Positions 571-10,029 of a stretch of 10,029 nt of DNA are shown here, one piece after another (within the stretch, counting starts at the first letter, position 1; each line of letters opens with the position of its first letter). The DNA comes from Oligoflexales bacterium. GTDB lineage: Bacteria > Bdellovibrionota_B > Oligoflexia > Oligoflexales > Bog-1112. The notes below the pieces were generated by a model. That model was not told where the DNA came from. It ran no database searches and saw nothing but the letters and a program-made list of their open reading frames with translations. Where the stretch lies: the NCBI GenBank assembly GCA_045105515.1, contig JBGCDR010000014.1:1-10029 (forward strand). The letters are read 5' to 3'. The position numbers were made by a program, and so were the translations under genes.

Positions 571-647
571 GGCGAGGTAGCTCAGCTGGTTAGAGCGCCG
601 GATTCATAACCCGGAGGTCGAGAGTTCAAGTCTCTCTCTCGCCACCA
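571..647 (+). tRNA. tRNA-Met (anticodon CAT), probably elongator type
   Basis: 77-nt cloverleaf. Acceptor stem GGCGAGG/TCTCGCC, D arm GCTC...GAGC, anticodon arm CCGGA-TTCATAA-CCCGG with CAT at 605-607, T arm GAGAG-TTCAAGT-CTCTC, encoded CCA end. A G1-C72 pair and no run of three G-C pairs in the anticodon stem argue against the initiator. tRNA-Ile2 is not fully excluded. Confidence 0.95.
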
Positions 648-652
648 TCAAG

Positions 653-688
653 ACCCAGGAATTTGTTTTGCAAGTCCTGGGTTTTTTT
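653..688 (+). terminator. Rho-independent terminator downstream of the tRNA
   Basis: ACCCAGGA (653-660) pairs with TCCTGGGT (675-682), with inner TTG/CAA pairs, followed by a T-tract to 688. Confidence 0.8.
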
Positions 689-757
689 GCGTTTTTGCTA
701 TGAAAGTATTGGGAAAGACTTCTTGAAAACCTTTAGTACGTGATTGATGAGATTCGC

Positions 758-1939
758 TCATTCAGCTCCTTTCTGTGCCTGGTCAGTTACGTGATGACAT
801 CTTGGTAAGTTGATGTAACTAGCAGTTTTATCGACCACTCCATCAAACATGTGTTGCACTGGCCTGGCGTACCTTTCCGTTGTCTTACGGTTTTTATGTC
901 CCATGTTTGCCTGAATAGCAGAGATATTCCCTTGGTTAGCAATTAGCCCTAAAGTCGCCCAAGTATTTCGTGTAATTCTGGCCCCTGTCCAATCCAGACC
1001 ACTTCTCTTGAAAGACCTTGTGAATACGTCGTATATCTTGGTTTGACGAAGAAAGTTACCATCTCGGTTATAAAACACTAGCGAAGTCTTAGCCGAATGG
1101 TTAGCCCTCCTTCGAGTAAGCAGCTCCACTAATTCTTGCGGGATCGAAACCACCCTTATTGATTGTTCTGTTTTGGCTACTTGCTGAAGGTAAGGTTCTT
1201 TAGAGTTAAGATCCCATGCTAAAGTACGAATAACACTAATAAAGCATCCTTCCAAATCCACCGCATCCCAATGCAAACCACAAGCTTCTCCTAAACGCAA
1301 GCCTGTGAGAATCAGGAACAAGGCAAGATCATAATACACAGGGTATTCGTGTTTTTTAAGATCACCTAACCATCTAGGTAGATCTTCTTTACGTACGTAA
1401 TAGTCAGGACGACGTTGGGTTGCACCTGGAAGAGAACAAGCTTTTCTATGTTTTTTTAGGATGGGTACGACAAATTTATAGTCTATCTCATTTCTATACC
1501 AATTAAGCACGATACTCAAAGCCCTTAGTTCATGTTGAAAAGACTTTCTATTTGGATTAGATGCAGTTGGGTGCTTGTGAAGCCACTTCATCCACTCATC
1601 AATATGAGCTACTCCAAATTTGGTCATGGCTATAGAACTGATAGGAGAGTCGAAAAAATACTTGAACCTAACACTCATAGACTGTTGAGAAGACTTTCTA
1701 AGCTGTGGAAGTGCTTCCAGTTGGTATTTTTTTACACAATCACTGAAAGTTAGATCTAAAATATGATTGCTTTTTACACCTTTTTCTAACTCCTTTTTCC
1801 TTTCCTCATGCCAGAGGTAGGCTTCTGCCTTTGTCTCAAAACACTTACTATCCAATCTCAATCCATTCACATATATTTCAGCTTGATAAAAGACAGTCTT
1901 TTTGCCTTTAGCTTTGCGGGATCGTTTAGCTACTCCCAA
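758..1939 (-). CDS. int: Tyrosine recombinase / phage-type site-specific integrase
   Basis: LILTGLRLGEACGLHWDAVDL (R215), K256, box II RITRNTWAT (R324), MGH (H348) and TTERY (Y357). N-terminal arm-binding-like region (SKCFETKAEA). TTG start overlaps the upstream xis gene. Confidence 0.95.
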   Translation of the reverse strand: MGVAKRSRKAKGKKTVFYQAEIYVNGLRLDSKCFETKAEAYLWHEERKKELEKGVKSNHILDLTFSDCVKKYQLEALPQLRKSSQQSMSVRFKYFFDSPISSIAMTKFGVAHIDEWMKWLHKHPTASNPNRKSFQHELRALSIVLNWYRNEIDYKFVVPILKKHRKACSLPGATQRRPDYYVRKEDLPRWLGDLKKHEYPVYYDLALFLILTGLRLGEACGLHWDAVDLEGCFISVIRTLAWDLNSKEPYLQQVAKTEQSIRVVSIPQELVELLTRRRANHSAKTSLVFYNRDGNFLRQTKIYDVFTRSFKRSGLDWTGARITRNTWATLGLIANQGNISAIQANMGHKNRKTTERYARPVQHMFDGVVDKTASYINLPRCHHVTDQAQKGAE

Positions 1940-2160
1940 GGTTTATTTTCCTTTCGTTTTACCCAGTCCTCAAAACTTTCCATGCGAATAAAATTGGTGT
2001 TGCCTAATGTCACAAAAGGAATGATTCTTTTTGCAATCCAATTTCGAATCGTTTGGGGAGATTTCCCTAGACTTTCAGCTAACTCATCTGGTGTGAGCAA
2101 ACCACCGATTCTGTTTTCAAAGAGCACACCATTCTTATCATCTATTGACATTTTTTTCAT
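1930..2160 (-). CDS. xis: Excisionase / recombination directionality factor (HTH_17-like)
   Basis: LLTPDELAESLGKSPQTIRNWIAKRIIPFVTLG...FEDWV is a typical Xis-type winged HTH. GAGGT RBS present. Overlaps int by 10 bp. Confidence 0.85.
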   Translation of the reverse strand: MKKMSIDDKNGVLFENRIGGLLTPDELAESLGKSPQTIRNWIAKRIIPFVTLGNTNFIRMESFEDWVKRKENKPWE

Positions 2161-2371
2161 TGAAAAACCTCTTTGTTTAATGAGACTATGTTTTCTAAAT
2201 CGCTCCTATATTCTTACTTAAAACCCCTCATATCAATGTATTCCCTTCCATCAAAGATTAAACTCCGAGTTTAATTGGATCTTTAAAGACCAACTCTCCT
2301 TACCGAATACTATATATTTGGTACTTCTCAGTGGAGAATTGGATCTTGAGAAATTAAAATATTTAAACAGG

Positions 2372-3325
2372 CTATTTTTGATTTTTTATTTTCTCTATCT
2401 GAGTAGCGGCCACCTCTAAAATGGGGAGTAGCTCTTTATGCATTACAGTATATTTTAGAATCTTATTTACCCTGTTAAGCTCAACCTTGTCCAAGTTATT
2501 AAGATGAAGTATGGATTTTTCAAGTTCTGGCTTTCTTAACAGAGTTGCTTCTGCTGTCTTTGTCTGGTCCTTTTTTTCATCAGAATCAAAATATTTTTTA
2601 AAGGTATCTAGGTCACCAAAATTCAACAATATGTCTTTAAAAACTATTTTAGTGTTATGAGATGATGAGTGGACTTCAAAAACCAACTGATTTTTTTCAT
2701 CAATATCAATTGAACAGATCACTTCATCAATAAGCTTAAGAAACCGTTCGATTCCCAAACTAGGGATTTTGAATCTCCTAGGAGCAGAGTGGAATAAACA
2801 TATTGTTTTTTCATCTATCGTTTCCAATATCATCTTTTGTATGGACATTACATCGAATACTTGGACAGTCTGAAGATCATTCCTGGCAATGGAGAGTTTA
2901 CTGCAATTGTTCTCATTCCATAAGACCACCTGAATTGCATATGCTGAAGCTTCTATTATCCTCTTTTCAATTTTTACTAGAACACCAATCTCCAGATCAG
3001 CTAAATCGCTTCGTAAATCTGGGTAAAGCTTATCGAATATTTTGGTCGATATTCCTGGGTAATGAGAATGCTTACTAATAAATGCATTCAATTTTCGAAA
3101 TACTCTAAGTTGATCTAAAAGGTCTGCTTTCTCTGTTTGTGTTACACCCATCAATGTAAGCAGTTTATTGTAGAGTGTCTTTTTGGCAGGGCTATCGGGA
3201 TCAGGTGGCTTAAATCCAAAAAGATTATATACGCTGGCAACGCTAATACCCAGCTCGTTTGCATAAGTTTGATAGCAGATGTCTACCTCATTTTCATCAA
3301 CATGTTGTTTGAAAGGGTTCACCAT
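2372..3325 (-). CDS. Hypothetical protein with N-terminal HTH, possible element repressor
   Basis: 317-aa ORF with AAGGT RBS. YQTYANELGISVASVYNLF resembles an XRE/Cro HTH. It lies divergent from the main plus-strand cluster. The C-terminal ~230 aa are not recognised. Confidence 0.55.
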   Translation of the reverse strand: MVNPFKQHVDENEVDICYQTYANELGISVASVYNLFGFKPPDPDSPAKKTLYNKLLTLMGVTQTEKADLLDQLRVFRKLNAFISKHSHYPGISTKIFDKLYPDLRSDLADLEIGVLVKIEKRIIEASAYAIQVVLWNENNCSKLSIARNDLQTVQVFDVMSIQKMILETIDEKTICLFHSAPRRFKIPSLGIERFLKLIDEVICSIDIDEKNQLVFEVHSSSHNTKIVFKDILLNFGDLDTFKKYFDSDEKKDQTKTAEATLLRKPELEKSILHLNNLDKVELNRVNKILKYTVMHKELLPILEVAATQIEKIKNQK

Positions 3326-3536
3326 AAATAATACCTTTTAAACCAATATTTTTTTTAGCGAGTCACCTCGCCTCTTCTCCTTTAACTTATTTAAGTCTTC
3401 TAAAATATTTTTTCAATTATTTTTAAATTAGTTGAATTTTCAGAATTACTGGTCTATCAAAAGCAAGAAAGCTGATTTGTCGAAAGTAACCATTTCAGTT
3501 CGGGATTTTTCATACTTATAACGTGGGTAACTATCT

Positions 3537-4481
3537 ATGGGAATAAGTCTAGATTACAAAGAAAGCAAAAACATTATTACACTTGTTAACATATTCGGTG
3601 TTGATAATTTTGTTTCTATGGAACTCGAAAATTTTAAGCAGAATCTTCCAACTGTGATTCCAAAAGACACCATATCATGCCTAACAAGTGATCAATTAAA
3701 TAGGCTGATTTTAGACTTTCTTAGTTCCAAAAGAAGTGAGCTAGAGCATAAATTAGTCAATATCAACACTACGCTAGTCCCCATCCAGATCGAAAAACGG
3801 CTCACTTACTCCACAATCAGGGACTTAGCAAAACTCAATGGTCAAAGTCAACGTGAGGTGCTAGCCACCCTTGGTTACAAGCTTTCAACAGGCGAAAAGC
3901 TTTGGGAGCGTGGTTCCGCCCTGAAGATGTATTTCACAGCTTGCATGCCTGATGATTACGTTTACACCGATATCGGTGGAGGTAACGCGTTGCATAAGGT
4001 TCCAGGTTACTCAGACCTATTGAACTTCACAAATATTAGCGCAATTGATGAAACCTTGCGAACAAAAAATGTTTCAGACAGACACATGTTGTTGAAAAAT
4101 CCCACTATTCATCTGAGGGTATCCACACAGGTTCCTCCTTATAAATTTTCTGATCTTAAAGTTGAAAATATCAAACGGGTCGTCTCTAGGTTAAACTCAA
4201 ATCAAATCAGCGTATCTGAGCTTATAGGTCAAGCTAATTCTGCAAAAACAATCCCTAAAAATAATTCCACTGATGCCCAAAATACAACTGGCTCTCTTAA
4301 AATTGGTGCCACTCTTGAAGACATTAATGACCAGCAGTTAAAGCTGCTAGGTCTTTATAAAGAACTTAAAAAAACCCTACGAGCAATGACTCCAGCCCAA
4401 GATGATCGATTTCGCATTGCTGAAGCGATCCTTGGAGTGTGTTCATTAGCAAGTAAAGCTTATTCCATCTATACATCTTAA
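3537..4481 (+). CDS. Hypothetical protein (314 aa), possible internal HTH-like segment
   Basis: Long ORF in AT-rich DNA ending 19 bp before the TGT-like gene. TIRDLAKLNGQSQREVLATLG is weakly HTH-like. No family recognised. Confidence 0.6.
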   Translation: MGISLDYKESKNIITLVNIFGVDNFVSMELENFKQNLPTVIPKDTISCLTSDQLNRLILDFLSSKRSELEHKLVNINTTLVPIQIEKRLTYSTIRDLAKLNGQSQREVLATLGYKLSTGEKLWERGSALKMYFTACMPDDYVYTDIGGGNALHKVPGYSDLLNFTNISAIDETLRTKNVSDRHMLLKNPTIHLRVSTQVPPYKFSDLKVENIKRVVSRLNSNQISVSELIGQANSAKTIPKNNSTDAQNTTGSLKIGATLEDINDQQLKLLGLYKELKKTLRAMTPAQDDRFRIAEAILGVCSLASKAYSIYTS

Positions 4482-4500
4482 GATATTATGAGGGTAAAAA

Positions 4501-5559
4501 ATGAGATCAGATTACATTTTAGCTTTTGGTATAAGCTGTTGTGATGTTTTTCAAGAAGTCGTTTGGAAGCTGAAAGACCTAGACCTTTTAAAAGATGTGC
4601 TGTGGTTAATTTCATCCACTGAATGCTTGGAAAAAGAGCTGTCAGAATATTTCCAATTGGAAAAGAGTTACATTTCTTCAAATTTTATCGGCGACTCAGG
4701 AGGCTATGCTATTAGAGTCTCCACCTTTCTTCCTAATGAGGTGCCCCCATCGTTAATTTCGAAATGCTACCAGCTAAACGCTTTCTCCTTTGGAATCAGC
4801 CCCGACGCACCTATTGGTTTAATTCCATTCGAAGATATGTTGGATTTGAACAAAGTAAGGTTTGAGGAATTTTACTCTCTAGAAAATAACCATAATATTC
4901 CCATTTTTGATTGTATTCATGGTCCTATCGAAAATGACAATAGTTCATATACATTAGATTTTCGTTGGGAGTGGGTCAACATGCTCAAAACTTTAAGGGG
5001 GAAATATAGCGAAGGATATGCAGTCTCACCTTCCTTAGATTTGCCTGACGCAGTCTTCTTTTATTTGCAACCTTGGTCTATAGGCGCTAAAAAGTTGCAT
5101 TTATTGGGCAAAGGCGACATTCAGGGAATACCTCTTTACATGTATTTAGCAAAAAAAGCGGGACTAAATGTAACAATTGACGCCAAAACGTATACGATCG
5201 ATGCGATAAAATTTTTAAGGTTCATGATTCCCGATGAAAATGGGGTTCCTATTGGCATCAATATCGGCAGAAAAAAGTTTCATAAGCTTGAAGCAAAAAA
5301 GCTAGAATGCCCTTGCCCTGTTTGCCTTCATTTTCAAGATCAATTTAGAATCAGCATATATTCACTTGCTGAAGAAAATTTTCATGATCGAAGCCTCGAT
5401 GGAAGTCGATTGCTTCATACCTGGATGGTTTGTCATAACATTGTCATCCTCCAGCAGTACCAGAACAAACTAAAATCTTTCCTTTACCAAAGCAGAAATA
5501 TTTTCATGAAATACTTGCATAAAGGGAATTCAACGAAACTATCAAGGCCATTCGTTTAG
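4501..5559 (+). CDS. tRNA-guanine transglycosylase (TGT)-fold protein, archaeosine-TGT/DpdA-like
   Basis: GAGG RBS. Ordered TGT motifs: GDSGGY (D65), SPDAP (D102), CIHG (H140), KLHLLGKG (H200), TIDAKTY (D227, nucleophile position), and Zn site CPCPVC (C270/272/275) plus HN (H312). Confidence 0.85.
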   Translation: MRSDYILAFGISCCDVFQEVVWKLKDLDLLKDVLWLISSTECLEKELSEYFQLEKSYISSNFIGDSGGYAIRVSTFLPNEVPPSLISKCYQLNAFSFGISPDAPIGLIPFEDMLDLNKVRFEEFYSLENNHNIPIFDCIHGPIENDNSSYTLDFRWEWVNMLKTLRGKYSEGYAVSPSLDLPDAVFFYLQPWSIGAKKLHLLGKGDIQGIPLYMYLAKKAGLNVTIDAKTYTIDAIKFLRFMIPDENGVPIGINIGRKKFHKLEAKKLECPCPVCLHFQDQFRISIYSLAEENFHDRSLDGSRLLHTWMVCHNIVILQQYQNKLKSFLYQSRNIFMKYLHKGNSTKLSRPFV

Positions 5560-5692
5560 TCGATAAGGTGGTTGATAAAGGACCAGAAAATTATGAAAAA
5601 AGTTTGCAATTTATTCAGTTAACCTAATGCAATATGTGACAGCAGTAGGAACTTACATTAAAATCCCTCGTATTTTAAGGAGTATAACTAAA

Positions 5693-6820
5693 ATGGAAAC
5701 TTTAAATCCAACAGAAAATTTAGACTGGCTTTCTCAAATGGACATAGCCGGGGAACCACAACTACTGAAGAGTATTTTAGTCGCATGTGTTTCAAGCCAG
5801 CTACCCGATCCACTATCGATTTTTATTGGCGGAAGTTCTTCATCAGGGAAGTCCACCTTAGTAAAGGCAGTTTTGGAAAATTTAACACCTCGGTCATGGT
5901 GGGAAAACACGGTGATATCTGAAATTTCACCAAAAGTTCTTTCAAAATTTGAACCAGACTTTTTTAAACATAAAATAATTTTTATTGATGAGACTCATGG
6001 TAGGTCCGATGATGTTGACTATCAATTGAGGATTGTACAATCGGAAGGAAAGTTTCAGCGATGGGTAACTGGTAAAGGTGGCGAATCAACAAAAGAAACC
6101 ATCAATGGCCCTGTAACAATCATTGACACTACGTCTGATGACTTTAATTCGCACAAAGAGGATAATCTTAACAGAGCAATCATTGTACAAACAGATGAGT
6201 CGCAAACGCAAACCGAAAATATTCTCATTAGCCAGGCGAAGGCTATAGCTGCTCCTAAGAAAATTAATACTGATTTTTTCAAACCATATCGACAACACCT
6301 TAGCAAATTAAAGAAGATTGCTGTGTATGTTCCGTATGCAGAAAATATAATACCAAAAACACGGCGATTACAGGAGAGAAGGGATTTCCCGAAGATTAAT
6401 AGAGTGATCAGAACAATAGCACTTATGAGGCAGTTTGATAAACCAACAAGAAAGTCAGACTTGGGCGAAGCATACTTGGAAGCAGACTTTCAAGACTATG
6501 AATCAGCCTATTCCATTCTCAACTATATGTTTCAGGCTACGGTCCACACTTCAGATACCCTAAAGTATCACTTCTCTGCTCTTAAGAAAGGATTAAAGAA
6601 AAAGGAGATTTTCAATGCTAGAGACTTCGAAAATCACACAGGGCTTAAATCCACCCGCACTAAAATTGTGCTAAAAAAAATGGTTGAAGAAGGGTTTATA
6701 ACTCAAGAATCTATAGCCCGAGGAAACCAATTTGCTCTATATAAACTATCAAAAGTGGAACCAAAACGATGCAACTTCTTGGTAACGCCTGATGAATTAA
6801 AACAAGCTTTAACCAAATAA
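5693..6820 (+). CDS. P-loop AAA+/MCM-like ATPase with C-terminal winged helix, putative element helicase
   Basis: Walker A GSSSSGKST (~5831-5857), Walker B IIFIDE, sensor-1-like IIDTT, Arg-finger-like DNLNR, RRDF, and C-terminal wHTH (FNARDFENHTGLKSTRTKIVLKKMVEEGFI). Start moved from 5627 to 5693 because TAAGGAG lies at 5676-5682. Confidence 0.75.
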   Translation: METLNPTENLDWLSQMDIAGEPQLLKSILVACVSSQLPDPLSIFIGGSSSSGKSTLVKAVLENLTPRSWWENTVISEISPKVLSKFEPDFFKHKIIFIDETHGRSDDVDYQLRIVQSEGKFQRWVTGKGGESTKETINGPVTIIDTTSDDFNSHKEDNLNRAIIVQTDESQTQTENILISQAKAIAAPKKINTDFFKPYRQHLSKLKKIAVYVPYAENIIPKTRRLQERRDFPKINRVIRTIALMRQFDKPTRKSDLGEAYLEADFQDYESAYSILNYMFQATVHTSDTLKYHFSALKKGLKKKEIFNARDFENHTGLKSTRTKIVLKKMVEEGFITQESIARGNQFALYKLSKVEPKRCNFLVTPDELKQALTK

Positions 6821-6988
6821 TTCTATTGTGGCCCCATTGAGGTCACTTGCTTGGCGACCACAGTTCCCTTAATGATACCGGCATGTTAATCCGAAGCCCC
6901 TGAAAATTCAATCTAGAACGAAAATGCTCATTTTTATGAAAATGGAATCTGTAAAATGATTGCAACAATTAATATTTTGGAGGGTGCT

Positions 6989-7171
6989 ATGCCTAGAATT
7001 GTTAAGTTACACCTAAAATACAGGATTCAAAAGCGTTTTAGGACACTGCAAGATGCGGCCTTAGAGCTAAACATCAGCTATTTCAAGCTAAGCAGGTACA
7101 TTAACGGGGCCTCTAATTTAAGTGATAAAGAGCTAAAATCTATTAAAAAAATTCTGAAAGATAATAGGTGA
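6989..7171 (+). CDS. Small XRE/Cro-family HTH DNA-binding protein (60 aa)
   Basis: TLQDAALELNISYFKLSRYING is a clear XRE-type HTH. GGAGG RBS at 6979-6983 supports ATG 6989 over 6956. Confidence 0.8.
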   Translation: MPRIVKLHLKYRIQKRFRTLQDAALELNISYFKLSRYINGASNLSDKELKSIKKILKDNR

Positions 7172-7183
7172 ATCGGAGATGAG

Positions 7184-7248
7184 AATAGTGGGGAATAGCT
7201 TTATATTATGCAATACTTACCTTACGTCAAAGGAAACTTCCCACTATT
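7184..7248. repeat. Inverted repeat upstream of the Rep-like gene
   Basis: AATAGTGGG (7184-7192) and CCCACTATT (7240-7248) are exact reverse complements, with imperfect extension on both sides. Confidence 0.6.
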
Positions 7249-7350
7249 TTCTACTTCTAACCAATGAAAATAGCTCTAACACATGTTTTCCAACTTCCAA
7301 TCTAAAAATTAGCTCGCTAGAGCATGTTTTTACTGTATGGAGTATTTAAA

Positions 7351-8661
7351 ATGAGTGATATTGAGGAATATAGACTAAATCCACTTGCCAATTTTGATAC
7401 CATTTTGGTTCGTATGTCTTACAGACTATTTAACCTACCGGTATCTTCATGGCATTCCCTTAGAAAAGAACTAAACGGTAGAAATCAGTGTCTTCATTCA
7501 TTTGACAAAATAGTAAATCTGCATAATAAAACTGCTACTTTTACCTTCCATTACACCAAAGATAGAACTTCGGAGAATCCGCTCTTAGTTGTAGGGGTTT
7601 TAATTTCTTTCAATGGGGTGCAAGAATACCAAAAATTTCTACATGAAAGAGGCTTAACTGTAGACTTAAACAAAAGATCTCCAAGCAATGAAAAATCAAA
7701 CTATCTCACCAATGAAGAACGAAATCTAGCCAATTCTTATGAAGGTTGTACTCCTATTGATTTCTACTTAGATCATCTTCCTAGGAAGGTTTGGCACTCA
7801 CTCTGCATATACTATAATGAAGCTTTATCGAAACTTAATTATTGGATCAAGAACCACACAGATTCCCCAGATCGTTTCCAGACATCTAATCAAGACCACC
7901 AATCATTTAGTTTTCAGTGGGTAGAGATTAATTGTGATCTACCTATCAATGAGGACTCTGACCCCTTGATAGATCCCCAATTTATCAGGAATATTTCTCT
8001 TTATGCTTCCGACATTAGGTCAATTAAGTATGTTAATACCTCTAAGGGAAGACTTAAAAAGGTTAGGACTGCTCCTCACTGCTACCGCAAGTTTAATTAC
8101 TCTCTTGAAGCTACCCTAGATCAACATCAAGTAGATTTAGTCTGCTACCACAAAGACAAGGATATCCTAAGAGTAGAAGCTATCATCAAGGATAAATCGA
8201 AGATTAATAATGAAAAAAAACAAAGGAAAGGTCCTGACAACTTTGAACTTATCAAGAAAGGTTCAGCAGAATACAACGAGGGTGGTAGCAAAGCGTTTAA
8301 TGATGAACATGATATTAAACATATTTTTACAAGGCTCTGGTCCTATGCGTTACCTACCCTAGAGAAGATAGCCAAGAAACATGGTAACCCTTCCCTTAAG
8401 CTAACAAAACGGAGACTGATTAATATTCTTACTGATGCCACTGATGAAGATGATTTTCCTATTTTTGATGAAGACCATGTCACCTACTTAGTTAATCACC
8501 TTCTGAATAATGACTTTATAATTCATCTCTCTTTAGAAAACGGACCCAGCAGACCTATCAAAGATATAGTTAGGAAGCTTGCTAAAATGAAGAAGGTTTT
8601 TCAACCTTTAGGCAAATACCGCAAAGGGGCTTACACGATAATTCCCACGTTGCTAACTTAA
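7351..8661 (+). CDS. Putative replication initiator, Rep_trans / phage gpII-like rolling-circle nickase with C-terminal winged helix
   Basis: FQWVEINCD resembles the R-x-D-x-x-x-D strand motif. LVCYHKDKDILRVE matches Y-x-K...R-x-E (Tyr codon 8146-8148). The C-terminus is wHTH-like. GGAG RBS at 7339-7342 supports ATG 7351. The ORF is solid; the function is tentative. Confidence 0.5.
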   Translation: MSDIEEYRLNPLANFDTILVRMSYRLFNLPVSSWHSLRKELNGRNQCLHSFDKIVNLHNKTATFTFHYTKDRTSENPLLVVGVLISFNGVQEYQKFLHERGLTVDLNKRSPSNEKSNYLTNEERNLANSYEGCTPIDFYLDHLPRKVWHSLCIYYNEALSKLNYWIKNHTDSPDRFQTSNQDHQSFSFQWVEINCDLPINEDSDPLIDPQFIRNISLYASDIRSIKYVNTSKGRLKKVRTAPHCYRKFNYSLEATLDQHQVDLVCYHKDKDILRVEAIIKDKSKINNEKKQRKGPDNFELIKKGSAEYNEGGSKAFNDEHDIKHIFTRLWSYALPTLEKIAKKHGNPSLKLTKRRLINILTDATDEDDFPIFDEDHVTYLVNHLLNNDFIIHLSLENGPSRPIKDIVRKLAKMKKVFQPLGKYRKGAYTIIPTLLT

Positions 8662-8703
8662 TATAGAAGCTTTATTTCCCTCTGGGTTATATAGGATATA
8701 ATT

Positions 8704-9912
8704 ATGAAAGTGAACAATGAGAAGAAAAATGTAGCTATTAAAATATTAAAGTCGCTAGACTCCATTCACCTTATCAACAGTGGGGCTGGTGTAGGAAAAA
8801 CGACCTTCGTAGTATACTTAATCACGAAAATCTTTGAACGTTCCTCTAACTCCGAAATTCTAGTCTTAAGTTTCTCTAGGAATGCTCGCTTCGAGCTAGA
8901 AAAGAGAGTTTGTGAATCATCCAATATAAAAATTAGAACTTTCCACTCCTTCTACCTTAGCATAATCCAGAAGAATATCGGCAACAAAGTTCCGCGAAAG
9001 TCCGCTAATAAAGTAGGTTATTCATCTCTAAAAATATCTGAAGGAATTAAACTGATTGTAGATGACTCAGAAATTATAAAATACCTAAAGGACAACAAAA
9101 TAATCTCCTGTAACAAAACTATAAAGATATTTTTAGAACAGTATAAGAGAATATCCTGGCGCAGAATTACGAACACGGACTTTAGAGATCTACTAAAAAA
9201 GTATGCTAAACGTAAGAAGCAAGACAACAAGATTGATCTTTATGAGATTGAAGTTATAGGTTACAGTCTTCTCAGAAAATACCCTCATCTAGTACATTCT
9301 TATGACTACATCATTGTGGATGAAGCTCAGGACTCAAAAAGCATCAACATCCAAACTCTTCGGCTCCTTATTGACCAAGACACCAAATTAATTTTAGCAG
9401 GTGATGAATACCAGAATATTTATGAGTTTATCGGCACACCAAAATCTATATCTAAAGTAGTTGCTGCAAAACTGAAAACCTTTAAGTCTCATTACCTTCC
9501 TACATCATTCCGTTTAACGAAACGCCTTGCTAATTTGGCTAACTCAATATCTAAGCACTGTAAGTCTATAGAGCATAAAAAAATAAAAGCTAATTCCAGT
9601 AAGAAAAAAGGGAAGAAACCGAAGCTAGTAAAATCTCTAGGATGGGAGGCAATTGATTATTCCGTTAAAAAAATTAAATGTGGTCTTAAACGAGGAAGAT
9701 ATTATGGAGATTATGTGTATTTGTTTCCTATATTCAAACACAGGAGATTCCGAAAATATAAGAGCAGAATATTAAAAAAGTTAGATAAAAATAATATTCA
9801 CTATTACCTCAAAGAAGATGAAGACCACCGGCTTGAACAAATCAACTTATTCTACACCATATTTCATTTTAACAAGCAGGACAAAGACACATTAGAGTTG
9901 TCTAACAATTGA
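8704..9912 (+). pseudogene. UvrD/Rep/PcrA-family SF1 helicase, C-terminally truncated
   Basis: Motifs I (SGAGVGKTT), Ia (LSFSRNA), Ib (TFHSF), II (VDEAQD), III (GDEYQNIY) and IV (TSFR) are present. The ORF stops near the start of the 2B domain, with no motif V or VI. The last codons fall within a putative IS end. Confidence 0.8.
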
Positions 9913-10029
9913 TAAAACCCTTTGGTAGCTTAATTTATGTTATTTTATAGTTCCAAAGACCTGCTGCTGCGTAACCTATTTCATCACGAAGCTTATCAAT
10001 TCTGACTCTTAACTTTGAAGAAGCTGCGT
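9895..10029 (-). mobile_element. Right end of a probable IS5-family (ISL2-group-like) insertion sequence
   Basis: TTA (9892-9894) is followed by GAGTTGTCTAACAA, which resembles ISL2-group termini as I recall them. It lies 40 bp past the stop of a transposase-like ORF and coincides with the helicase truncation. Confidence 0.6.
9935..10027 (-). CDS. C-terminal fragment of a probable IS5-family (DDE_Tnp_4-like) transposase, running off the window edge
   Basis: The minus-strand frame reads AASSKLRVRIDKLRDEIGYAAAGLWNYKIT*, resembling the R-x-R...D...aGLxN C-terminus of these transposases. It is absent from the ORF track because it has no start codon in the window. Confidence 0.6.
   Translation of the reverse strand, partial: AASSKLRVRIDKLRDEIGYAAAGLWNYKIT

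Follow-up and report, generated by a model that had tools for sequence, protein, structure and literature searches.

A far-diverged TGT-superfamily enzyme coupled to an upstream gene on bacterial integrative elements: a candidate DpdA-like DNA base-exchange module

Enzymes of the DpdA family are an accepted signature of 7-deazaguanine modification of DNA, and five DpdA subfamilies have been described (PMC10516641). Phage DpdA or DpdA2 produced alone in Escherichia coli is reported to introduce dPreQ0 into plasmid DNA from the precursor of the host, which does not occur in a queD mutant (PMC6884629, PMC10516641), and the phages listed by Hutinet et al. (2019, PMC6884629) include 76 in which DpdA is encoded but preQ0 genes are lacking altogether. 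Bacterial DpdA is reported to require the ATPase DpdB (PMC10164549). Here we describe a gene pair on contig JBGCDR010000014.1 of the Oligoflexales bacterium assembly GCA_045105515.1. The window that was analyzed is this entire contig (C14, 10,029 bases); the assembly (G000) measures 6.29 Mb in 461 contigs with 38% GC and is 91% complete. The pair consists of a gene for a 314-amino acid (aa) protein without family match (3537..4481, + strand) and a gene for a 352-aa protein (4501..5559, + strand) that we predict to be a DpdA-like base-exchange enzyme of the tRNA-guanine transglycosylase (TGT) superfamily.

The sequence motifs of the 352-aa protein are DSGG from residue 65, IDAKT from residue 226 (with the Asp at 227), CPCPVC from residue 270 and CHNI from residue 311 (with the His at 312). 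The coordinates of both open reading frames (ORFs), their spacing of 19 bp and the motif positions agree with an initial annotation made from the DNA letters alone. When the 352-aa protein was used as a single query, no match was obtained in Pfam, PADLOC, NCBIfam, PHROGs or, with phmmer, the PDB sequences, which puts the motif reading beyond the reach of routine annotation. Among 5.8 billion proteins searched with a word index, only the protein itself was retrieved. A phmmer scan over 1.84 billion cluster representatives gave 26 proteins at E ≤ 1e-3, seven of them below 1e-30, and 24 were aligned after two fragments of 166-174 aa (P0019 and P0021) had been left out. In this family alignment D65, D102 (in PDAP), W158, G172, H200 and D227 are invariant and the zinc-site residues C270, C272, C275 and H312 are each at least 90% conserved. 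Conservation across the 24 sequences indicates that the motifs are not due to chance.

A profile made from the family was compared with the PDB and matched archaeosine TGT (arcTGT, 1iq8) with an E value of 1.3e-7, QTRT1 with 2.7e-5 and DpdA (7ui4) with 0.0059. In the profile alignment to 1iq8, D65 is placed on the Asp of DSGSFQ, D102 on LDIP, H200 on VHLFGAG and D227 on DSASY, while the Cys and His residues fall on the CxCxxC and HN zinc ligands. We take the aligned arcTGT residues to be the general acid/base Asp, the base-binding Asp, the nucleophile Asp and the zinc ligands. The Pfam TGT family (PF01702) matched 8 of the 24 aligned family and sister-group members, the best with 1.5e-7, and did not match the window protein at E ≤ 1. 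NCBIfam TgtA was the best family for five of the 24 (best 1.1e-11), and PADLOC DpdA matched a single member (0.0067); no PADLOC family matched the window protein.

An AlphaFold2 (AF2) model of the 352-aa protein, built on the 24-sequence family alignment, had a predicted local distance difference test (pLDDT) score of 90.6 and a predicted template modeling (pTM) score of 0.91. Comparison of the model with 48,161 PDB representatives by VIA-align gave the highest Z score for arcTGT (1iq8, 23.8), followed by bacterial TGT (3unt, 22.1), QTRT2 (6fv5, 21.4), DpdA (7ui4, 21.2) and, in fifth place, Cap10 (9ntn_B, 17.0); values within 1 are treated as tied by the aligner, and unrelated TIM barrels scored 13.7 or lower. 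The 50 best Foldseek matches in the PDB were all TGT or QTRT1, with E values of about 1e-9. Furthermore, the best structural matches in BFVD include a protein of Vibrio phage nt-1, and the ESM Atlas clusters nearest to the window protein were 91-100% viral. Judged from its alignment and predicted fold, the product of 4501..5559 is a genuine, far-diverged enzyme of the TGT superfamily in which, as initially claimed, both catalytic aspartates and the full zinc site are kept. This conserved chemistry argues for base exchange on a guanine-like base in nucleic acid, and the retained zinc subdomain sets the protein apart from the protein-directed Cap10.

The canonical housekeeping TGT of the assembly is encoded on another contig (C181) and matches PF01702 with 525 bits. 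No BLASTP similarity was detected between this enzyme and the window protein, and a search of the window protein against NCBIfam, including TIGR00430, at E ≤ 10 returned nothing but an unrelated 12-bit match. With the canonical copy elsewhere, no equivalog match and no BLASTP similarity, identity as the housekeeping queuosine TGT was rejected, and the earlier distinction between a TGT/DpdA-like enzyme and the housekeeping TGT holds.

The 26 relatives split into a core clade (P0001-P0018 and P0020, 18-44% pairwise identity), to which the window protein belongs, and a sister group (P0022-P0026) that is 19-26% identical to the core. The two are related with a probability of 99.85% in hhalign (E 9.7e-31, 309 columns). 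The core clade is rare. It comprises 19 full-length and two fragment representatives among the 1.84 billion, each of its clusters has just one or two members, and a profile search found it in 3 of 131 genomes of the phylum. In a 30-row tree, in which the sister group was joined by five viral ORFs and the canonical TGT of the host was included, the 19 core sequences formed one side of a branch with a Shimodaira-Hasegawa-like approximate likelihood ratio test (SH-aLRT) support of 98 and a stem of 1.36. The sister group with the five viral ORFs formed the other side (support 95), and the canonical TGT was the longest branch. Upon addition of Bas24 DpdA (DpdA1 type) and the TGT-domain protein of Vibrio phage GR7B the core clade stayed intact (support 87) and separate from both; the Vibrio protein grouped with the sister group and the Bas24 branch was too long to place. 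These placements are to be read from trees that lack arcTGT, bacterial DpdA, DpdA3 and DpdA4 and in which the references sit on very long branches.

The sister group is represented by 432 viral loci in IMG/VR. The four best-ranked of these loci were examined by scanning the 53 ORFs nearest to the TGT-like gene out of 103 listed. Genes for PTPS/QueD, GTP cyclohydrolase I and QueC were found beside the TGT-like gene in all four, and a radical-SAM/QueE-like gene in three. FolE, QueD, QueE and QueC genes beside a TGT-like gene are described as the signature of phage 7-deazaguanine DNA modification (PMC6884629, PMC10516641). Three side observations were made on this group and its kin. One viral contig (L017, 9401-12881) carries three tandem TGT-like paralogs of 398, 378 and 385 aa, behind which lie genes for PTPS/QueD, GTP cyclohydrolase I and QueC; in locus L016 a DUF6884 gene (9542-9970, E 8.5e-37) is the immediate upstream neighbor of a phage DpdA-like gene; and the ESM Atlas contains archaeal proteins of 575 aa that combine DUF6884 with a TGT-like fold. 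DpdA-like enzymes may have a further recurrent partner in DUF6884.

Among the phage enzymes (DpdA1-DpdA4), the nearest to the window clade are those of the uncultured-virus sister group, which is DpdA2-like and has its kin among the TGT-domain proteins that large Vibrio myophages encode. The clade shares with it the TGT fold, the DSGG and LDxP-type motifs, the catalytic Asp, the zinc site and a C-terminal AIDxxD helix, and like phage DpdA the enzyme is carried by mobile DNA. Unlike phage DpdA, it belongs to a separate clade on a long stem for which neither phage records nor IMG/VR gave a match, it has no linked FolE/QueCDE genes, and every locus of its clade that was read has an upstream gene that was not found in the 80 viral loci searched. 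Bacterial DpdA (7ui4) has the same fold, with a root-mean-square deviation of 3.5 over 284 residues, and the two-gene arrangement and genomic-island setting recall bacterial DpdA/DpdB, in which DpdA needs DpdB (PMC10164549). Unlike in bacterial Dpd systems, there are no DpdC-K genes and no ParB or DUF328 domains among the window ORFs, the profile match to 7ui4 is poor (E value given above), and the PADLOC DpdA models fail on the window protein. The closest match by both structure and profile is arcTGT, with aligned catalytic and zinc motifs, but the window protein is only about 16% identical to it, lacks its C-terminal C1, C2 and PUA tRNA-binding domains and occurs in the context of a bacterial mobile element. 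Cap10 of the type IV cyclic oligonucleotide-based antiphage signaling system (CBASS; 9ntn) is an example of the TGT fold being reused outside tRNA modification together with a tightly bound partner protein. Cap10 has no zinc site and is encoded with the QueC-like Cap9 and a CD-NTase (10.1101/2025.04.06.647259), whereas the window enzyme keeps the zinc site and neither of these partners is present.

The genomic setting was read in four loci: the window, a 7-kb contig (C206) of genome G002 (locus L006), contig C136 of genome G064 (locus L007), and a 189-kb metagenome contig (L014). A search for related loci with a narrower family alignment gave no further loci than L014 and the G002 contig. In all four a same-strand gene of 314-403 aa lies directly upstream of the enzyme gene. 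The window genes are separated by the 19-base gap, with the sequence GAGGG 8 nt before the second ATG, and no terminator-like site was found between them in a scan that overall performed no better than chance. In G002 (L006; upstream gene 2624-3835, enzyme gene 1464-2627) and L014 the two genes overlap by 4 bp, and they also overlap in G064. The enzyme gene is usually translationally coupled to the upstream gene. This pair is the only content common to the four loci, the helicase, polymerase and P-loop genes being variable. An integrase or resolvase is found nearby in three of the four. The L014 locus has a tRNA-Ser, an integrase and an HTH_17 gene in the same layout as the tRNA-Met, integrase and HTH_17 gene of the window, and the two HTH_17 proteins are 30% identical. 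The G064 locus harbors two resolvase-family recombinases, a family-A DNA polymerase (PolA) and an FtsZ_C-like protein. The integrative elements that carry the pair differ from one another and have either Tyr or Ser recombinases; the earlier assignment of the enzyme to an integrative element is borne out by these recombinase-bearing loci. In G064 the region 3154-15515 of contig C136 also encodes a 707-aa Walker-A protein and looks like a self-replicating, partitioned element.

The upstream proteins are much less uniform than their position. The window protein is 28% identical to its G002 counterpart over 145 aa (E 6e-11), the similarity to the G064 protein is borderline (2e-4), and none was detectable with the L014 protein. 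The conserved pairing proposed in the initial annotation thus stands as far as the presence of an upstream gene is concerned; as to a single upstream family, only the match between window and G002 is significant. The scant similarity suggests either very fast evolution or replacement. No match to the 314-aa protein was found in Pfam, PADLOC, NCBIfam or PHROGs, nor in profile searches of Pfam and the PDB, in agreement with its earlier description as unrecognized. Homology searches for the upstream protein found only itself and the L014 protein, and profiles of the upstream proteins gave no match in the 80 viral loci. An AF2 model of the 314-aa protein based on a four-row alignment had a pLDDT of 37.9 and was unusable. 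The ESM Atlas returned sub-threshold ParB-like and DUF3102-like rows with template modeling (TM) scores of about 0.3, which we regard as a lead and not as evidence. Prediction of a complex between the TGT-like and upstream proteins gave a score of 0.07, against a mark of 0.32.

Since the closest kin are phage DNA-modification enzymes, the genes are carried by integrative elements, and lone phage DpdA or DpdA2 is active, DpdA-like insertion into DNA is the best supported function. By analogy with these systems we propose, with moderate confidence, that the pair serves integrative elements as a DpdA-like module for DNA base exchange and depends on a precursor made by the host; the enzyme and its companion gene probably form a small DNA-marking module. 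The enzyme would act as DpdA does and replace guanine of double-stranded DNA by a 7-deazaguanine base, either preQ0 or a close derivative, which would be drawn from the queuosine pathway of the host or from uptake. Marking of the element DNA, and perhaps of the host DNA too, would reduce cutting by the restriction enzymes that a new host contains. The role of the upstream protein would be that of an accessory that replaces DpdB as a DNA-targeting or loading factor, and the neighboring P-loop NTPase (5627..6820) may provide ATP hydrolysis in some elements.

Several results, given here and in the following two paragraphs, weigh against this proposal. The idea that the host supplies the precursor, already part of the initial annotation, did not find backing in two of the three assigned hosts: QueC was not detected in G000 by Pfam or TIGR00364, and G064 (94% complete) has no real QueC. 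The G000 assembly does contain TGT (C181), a two-module QueF and two PTPS/QueD-like genes (on contigs C92, C333, C170 and C181), and QueC was found in G002 and, of 15 family relatives, in 5, one of which is the same-genus genome G014. At 91-94% completeness the absence of QueC is not proven. A variant of the proposal, in which the pair would be a two-component base-exchange system of non-phage integrative elements with a fast-evolving upstream protein in place of DpdB to load or aim the enzyme on DNA and, as several apparent hosts lack QueC, a base that is possibly not preQ0 and instead a salvaged or novel guanine analog, is in our estimate rather unlikely. The Pfam and PADLOC scans of the window found no FolE, QueC/D/E or DpdB/C, as had been stated before, and preQ0-synthesis genes, the ParB-like DpdB and DpdC were absent from all four loci. 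In addition, PADLOC's two DpdA models detected no bacterial DpdA in the assembly. Because the contig ends at 10029, a dpd cluster further along the island cannot be seen. The upstream proteins carry no recognizable ParB-like or DGQQR ATPase signature, and profiles made from two or three of them missed the remaining ones among 3187 ORFs. The core clade was absent from 50,697 phage records and 72,556 plasmids (both by tblastn) and from three IMG/VR scans with core-family alignments, which makes the phage anti-restriction analogy indirect. Finally, the structural Z scores do not separate DNA-acting from tRNA-acting TGTs, and the highest score is that of arcTGT.

The assignment of the element to its host is also uncertain. 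The left flank (1-570) has a GC content of 59% as compared to about 36% for the rest of the window, and a sequencing depth of 1-3 as compared to 41-46. In three public runs from one study (X1-X3), region 591-9918 was recovered as a single contig with depths of 41, 46 and 13 and no differences, and the public contigs of the element have their start within the tRNA-Met, at 591 or 600. None of the sequencing runs listed was an RNA run. Probably the contig was joined at the left via the conserved tRNA, or else the element is multicopy, and in both cases the host assignment becomes unsure. Over the last 107 bases (9923-10029) the depth was about 6700-7600 in two runs and 2100 in the third, compared with about 41-46. 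Just past the UvrD-like gene the contig closes with an abundant or repeated sequence. Given the depth anomalies at both contig ends, both look like joins through shared sequence. Two apparent joints in the public contigs (6949>8199 and 7860>9894) were disregarded, as their sides consist of just 20-24 letters. A soil metagenome run from a different study (X4) yielded two 151-base contigs with a depth of 2 that are identical to parts of the enzyme gene (window 4741-5072).

The window copy of the enzyme ends early. Beyond the column at which the window protein stops, each of the 23 aligned relatives has another 24-222 aa (median 37). The TAG at 5557-5559 precedes a conserved C-terminal helix, AI[DE]xVD..G..Y, that according to hhalign is also common to the phage sister group. 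Its expected place in the window is 5557..5622 (+ strand), where another 20 open codons follow the TAG and retain a faint similarity to the family C-terminus, and a profile match to the window DNA runs through this one TAG. The initial annotation had the ORF bounds right and overlooked that the TAG lies ahead of the family helix. This may impair the copy or may simply make it shorter. It is doubtful, in our view, that the copy is a decaying remnant in which the last conserved helix was lost to a nonsense TAG and the module is inactive here, a scenario that is independent of the function of the family. The conservation of the helix in all 23 relatives and even the phage sister group, the open codons with faint family similarity, and the use of TAG as the stop of two other window genes point to such decay. 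On the other hand, the whole barrel with its catalytic and zinc residues is intact, further stops or frameshifts are absent, and the AF2 model is confident up to the protein end. A stretch of 20 open codons can also arise by chance in AT-rich DNA, and the sequence was identical in the three runs of one study, with fragments in a second. No variant at the TAG was present in the contigs of X1-X3, although contigs drop rare variants.

The match to arcTGT raises the alternative of an element-encoded tRNA transglycosylase that, like arcTGT or bacterial TGT, exchanges a base in a tRNA of the host or one that matters to the element and so tunes translation, with the upstream protein as RNA-binding or regulatory subunit. 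The top structural and profile match is indeed a tRNA enzyme, NCBIfam TgtA is the best family for several members, the Atlas structural rows include archaeal tRNA-guanine transglycosylases with TM scores of about 0.7, and eukaryotic TGT is described as acting with a second subunit (PMC10164549). We nevertheless find this alternative improbable, as the protein consists of the catalytic domain alone, without C1, C2 or PUA domains by Pfam, a canonical TGT is already encoded in the genome, the nearest sequence relatives are phage genes within DNA-modification clusters, and the gap in Z score to DpdA is small. Defense systems are frequently carried by integrative elements, and the pair could be part of one, either marking resident DNA within a Dpd-like restriction-modification system of which the restriction genes lie past the contig end at 10029, or with the TGT fold acting as a glycosylase on modified DNA of invaders. 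TGT homologs belong to Dpd and to a system related to bacteriophage exclusion (BREX; PMC10164549, PMC12839542), and a UvrD-like helicase is encoded 3 kb downstream of the pair, with the DRT- and Gabija-type helicases (RTasHel and GajB-type models) as its best PADLOC matches. A defense or self-marking role of this kind is nonetheless quite unlikely: the pair alone is shared by the four loci with helicase, polymerase and P-loop genes differing, none of the six window proteins tested matches PADLOC components beyond generic helicase and P-loop models, the PADLOC DpdA models do not match the enzyme, and Pfam recognized no nuclease in the window.

A tightly coupled partner gene without family would also fit a Cap10-like enzyme that holds or transfers a protein-attached 7-deazaguanine, with the upstream protein as substrate. 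Cap10 ranks fifth among the structural matches and is reported to keep Asp, Ser and Asp residues and the catalytic Asp/His geometry (bioRxiv 10.1101/2025.04.06.647259). The zinc site that is missing in Cap10 is conserved here, however, its QueC-like Cap9 and CD-NTase partners occur in none of the four loci, and its Z score lies 4-7 units below those of the nucleic-acid enzymes, so that we regard a protein-directed activity as highly improbable.

The tRNA-Met (CAT anticodon, 571..647, + strand), found by ARAGORN and matching Rfam RF00005 with 68.1 bits, is the likely integration site and is followed by a hairpin with a T-run (ca. 653-690). Next come the gene for a 393-aa tyrosine integrase (758..1939, - strand; PF00589, E 5.4e-19) and that for a 76-aa excisionase-like HTH_17 protein (1930..2160, - strand; PF12728, E 2e-11). 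A 317-aa ORF without family in Pfam, PADLOC, NCBIfam or PHROGs (2372..3325, - strand) is divergent from the gene pair. Downstream of the pair, on the + strand, lies the gene for the 397-aa P-loop NTPase with a winged-helix-like C-terminal part. This protein showed weak P-loop matches to AAA_16, DUF5906 and Zeta_toxin, a MarR-like PHROG match at residues 323-378, and no match in a PDB search; it is 39% identical over 357 aa to the product of the gene beside the pair in G002 and has no counterpart in the G064 and L014 loci. Possibly it serves the element as a helper ATPase or in replication. It is followed on the same strand by a small helix-turn-helix-like ORF of 71 aa (6956..7171; weak HTH_3 and LacI matches, E 0.03-0.04), a 445-aa ORF without significant family or PDB match (7324..8661; Pfam, PADLOC, NCBIfam, PHROGs and PDB), and the gene for the UvrD-like superfamily 1 helicase of 402 aa, which represents the N-terminal ATPase part (8704..9912; PF00580, E 1.8e-29; phrog_1967 DNA helicase, E 1.2e-42). 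The helicase covers positions 164-514 of the 776 of phrog_1967, roughly the first half; it represents either a short version of the protein or the product of a gene cut off close to where the contig ends. Neither the window nor L014 yielded an att direct repeat, a promoter and terminator scan of the window was no better than with shuffled sequence, and no capsid or tail genes were seen in the 10 kb.

The initial annotation had suggested that the module may be undescribed. In part this is too broad, as orphan DpdA in phages and TGT homologs in several defense systems are already known (PMC6884629, PMC12839542, 10.1101/2025.04.06.647259), with the 76 phages that have DpdA alone listed in the first of these. 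What is new is a rare and distinct clade that is missed by Pfam, PADLOC, NCBIfam and PHROGs, its constant coupling to a gene without family, and its occurrence on non-phage integrative elements. The clade is not described in the literature on DpdA-type and TGT-fold enzymes that we covered, to which subscription papers and the supplements of PMC10516641 do not belong.

With DpdA-family enzymes as the signature of 7-deazaguanine DNA modification, the window clade would be a further subfamily. If the enzyme is active on DNA, base-exchange DNA modification extends to another class of mobile elements, and the pair would offer a minimal two-gene system for studying how such modification is targeted, and which base is inserted when the host is without the preQ0 pathway. 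If it acts on tRNA or protein instead, the clade would represent a further reuse of the TGT fold.

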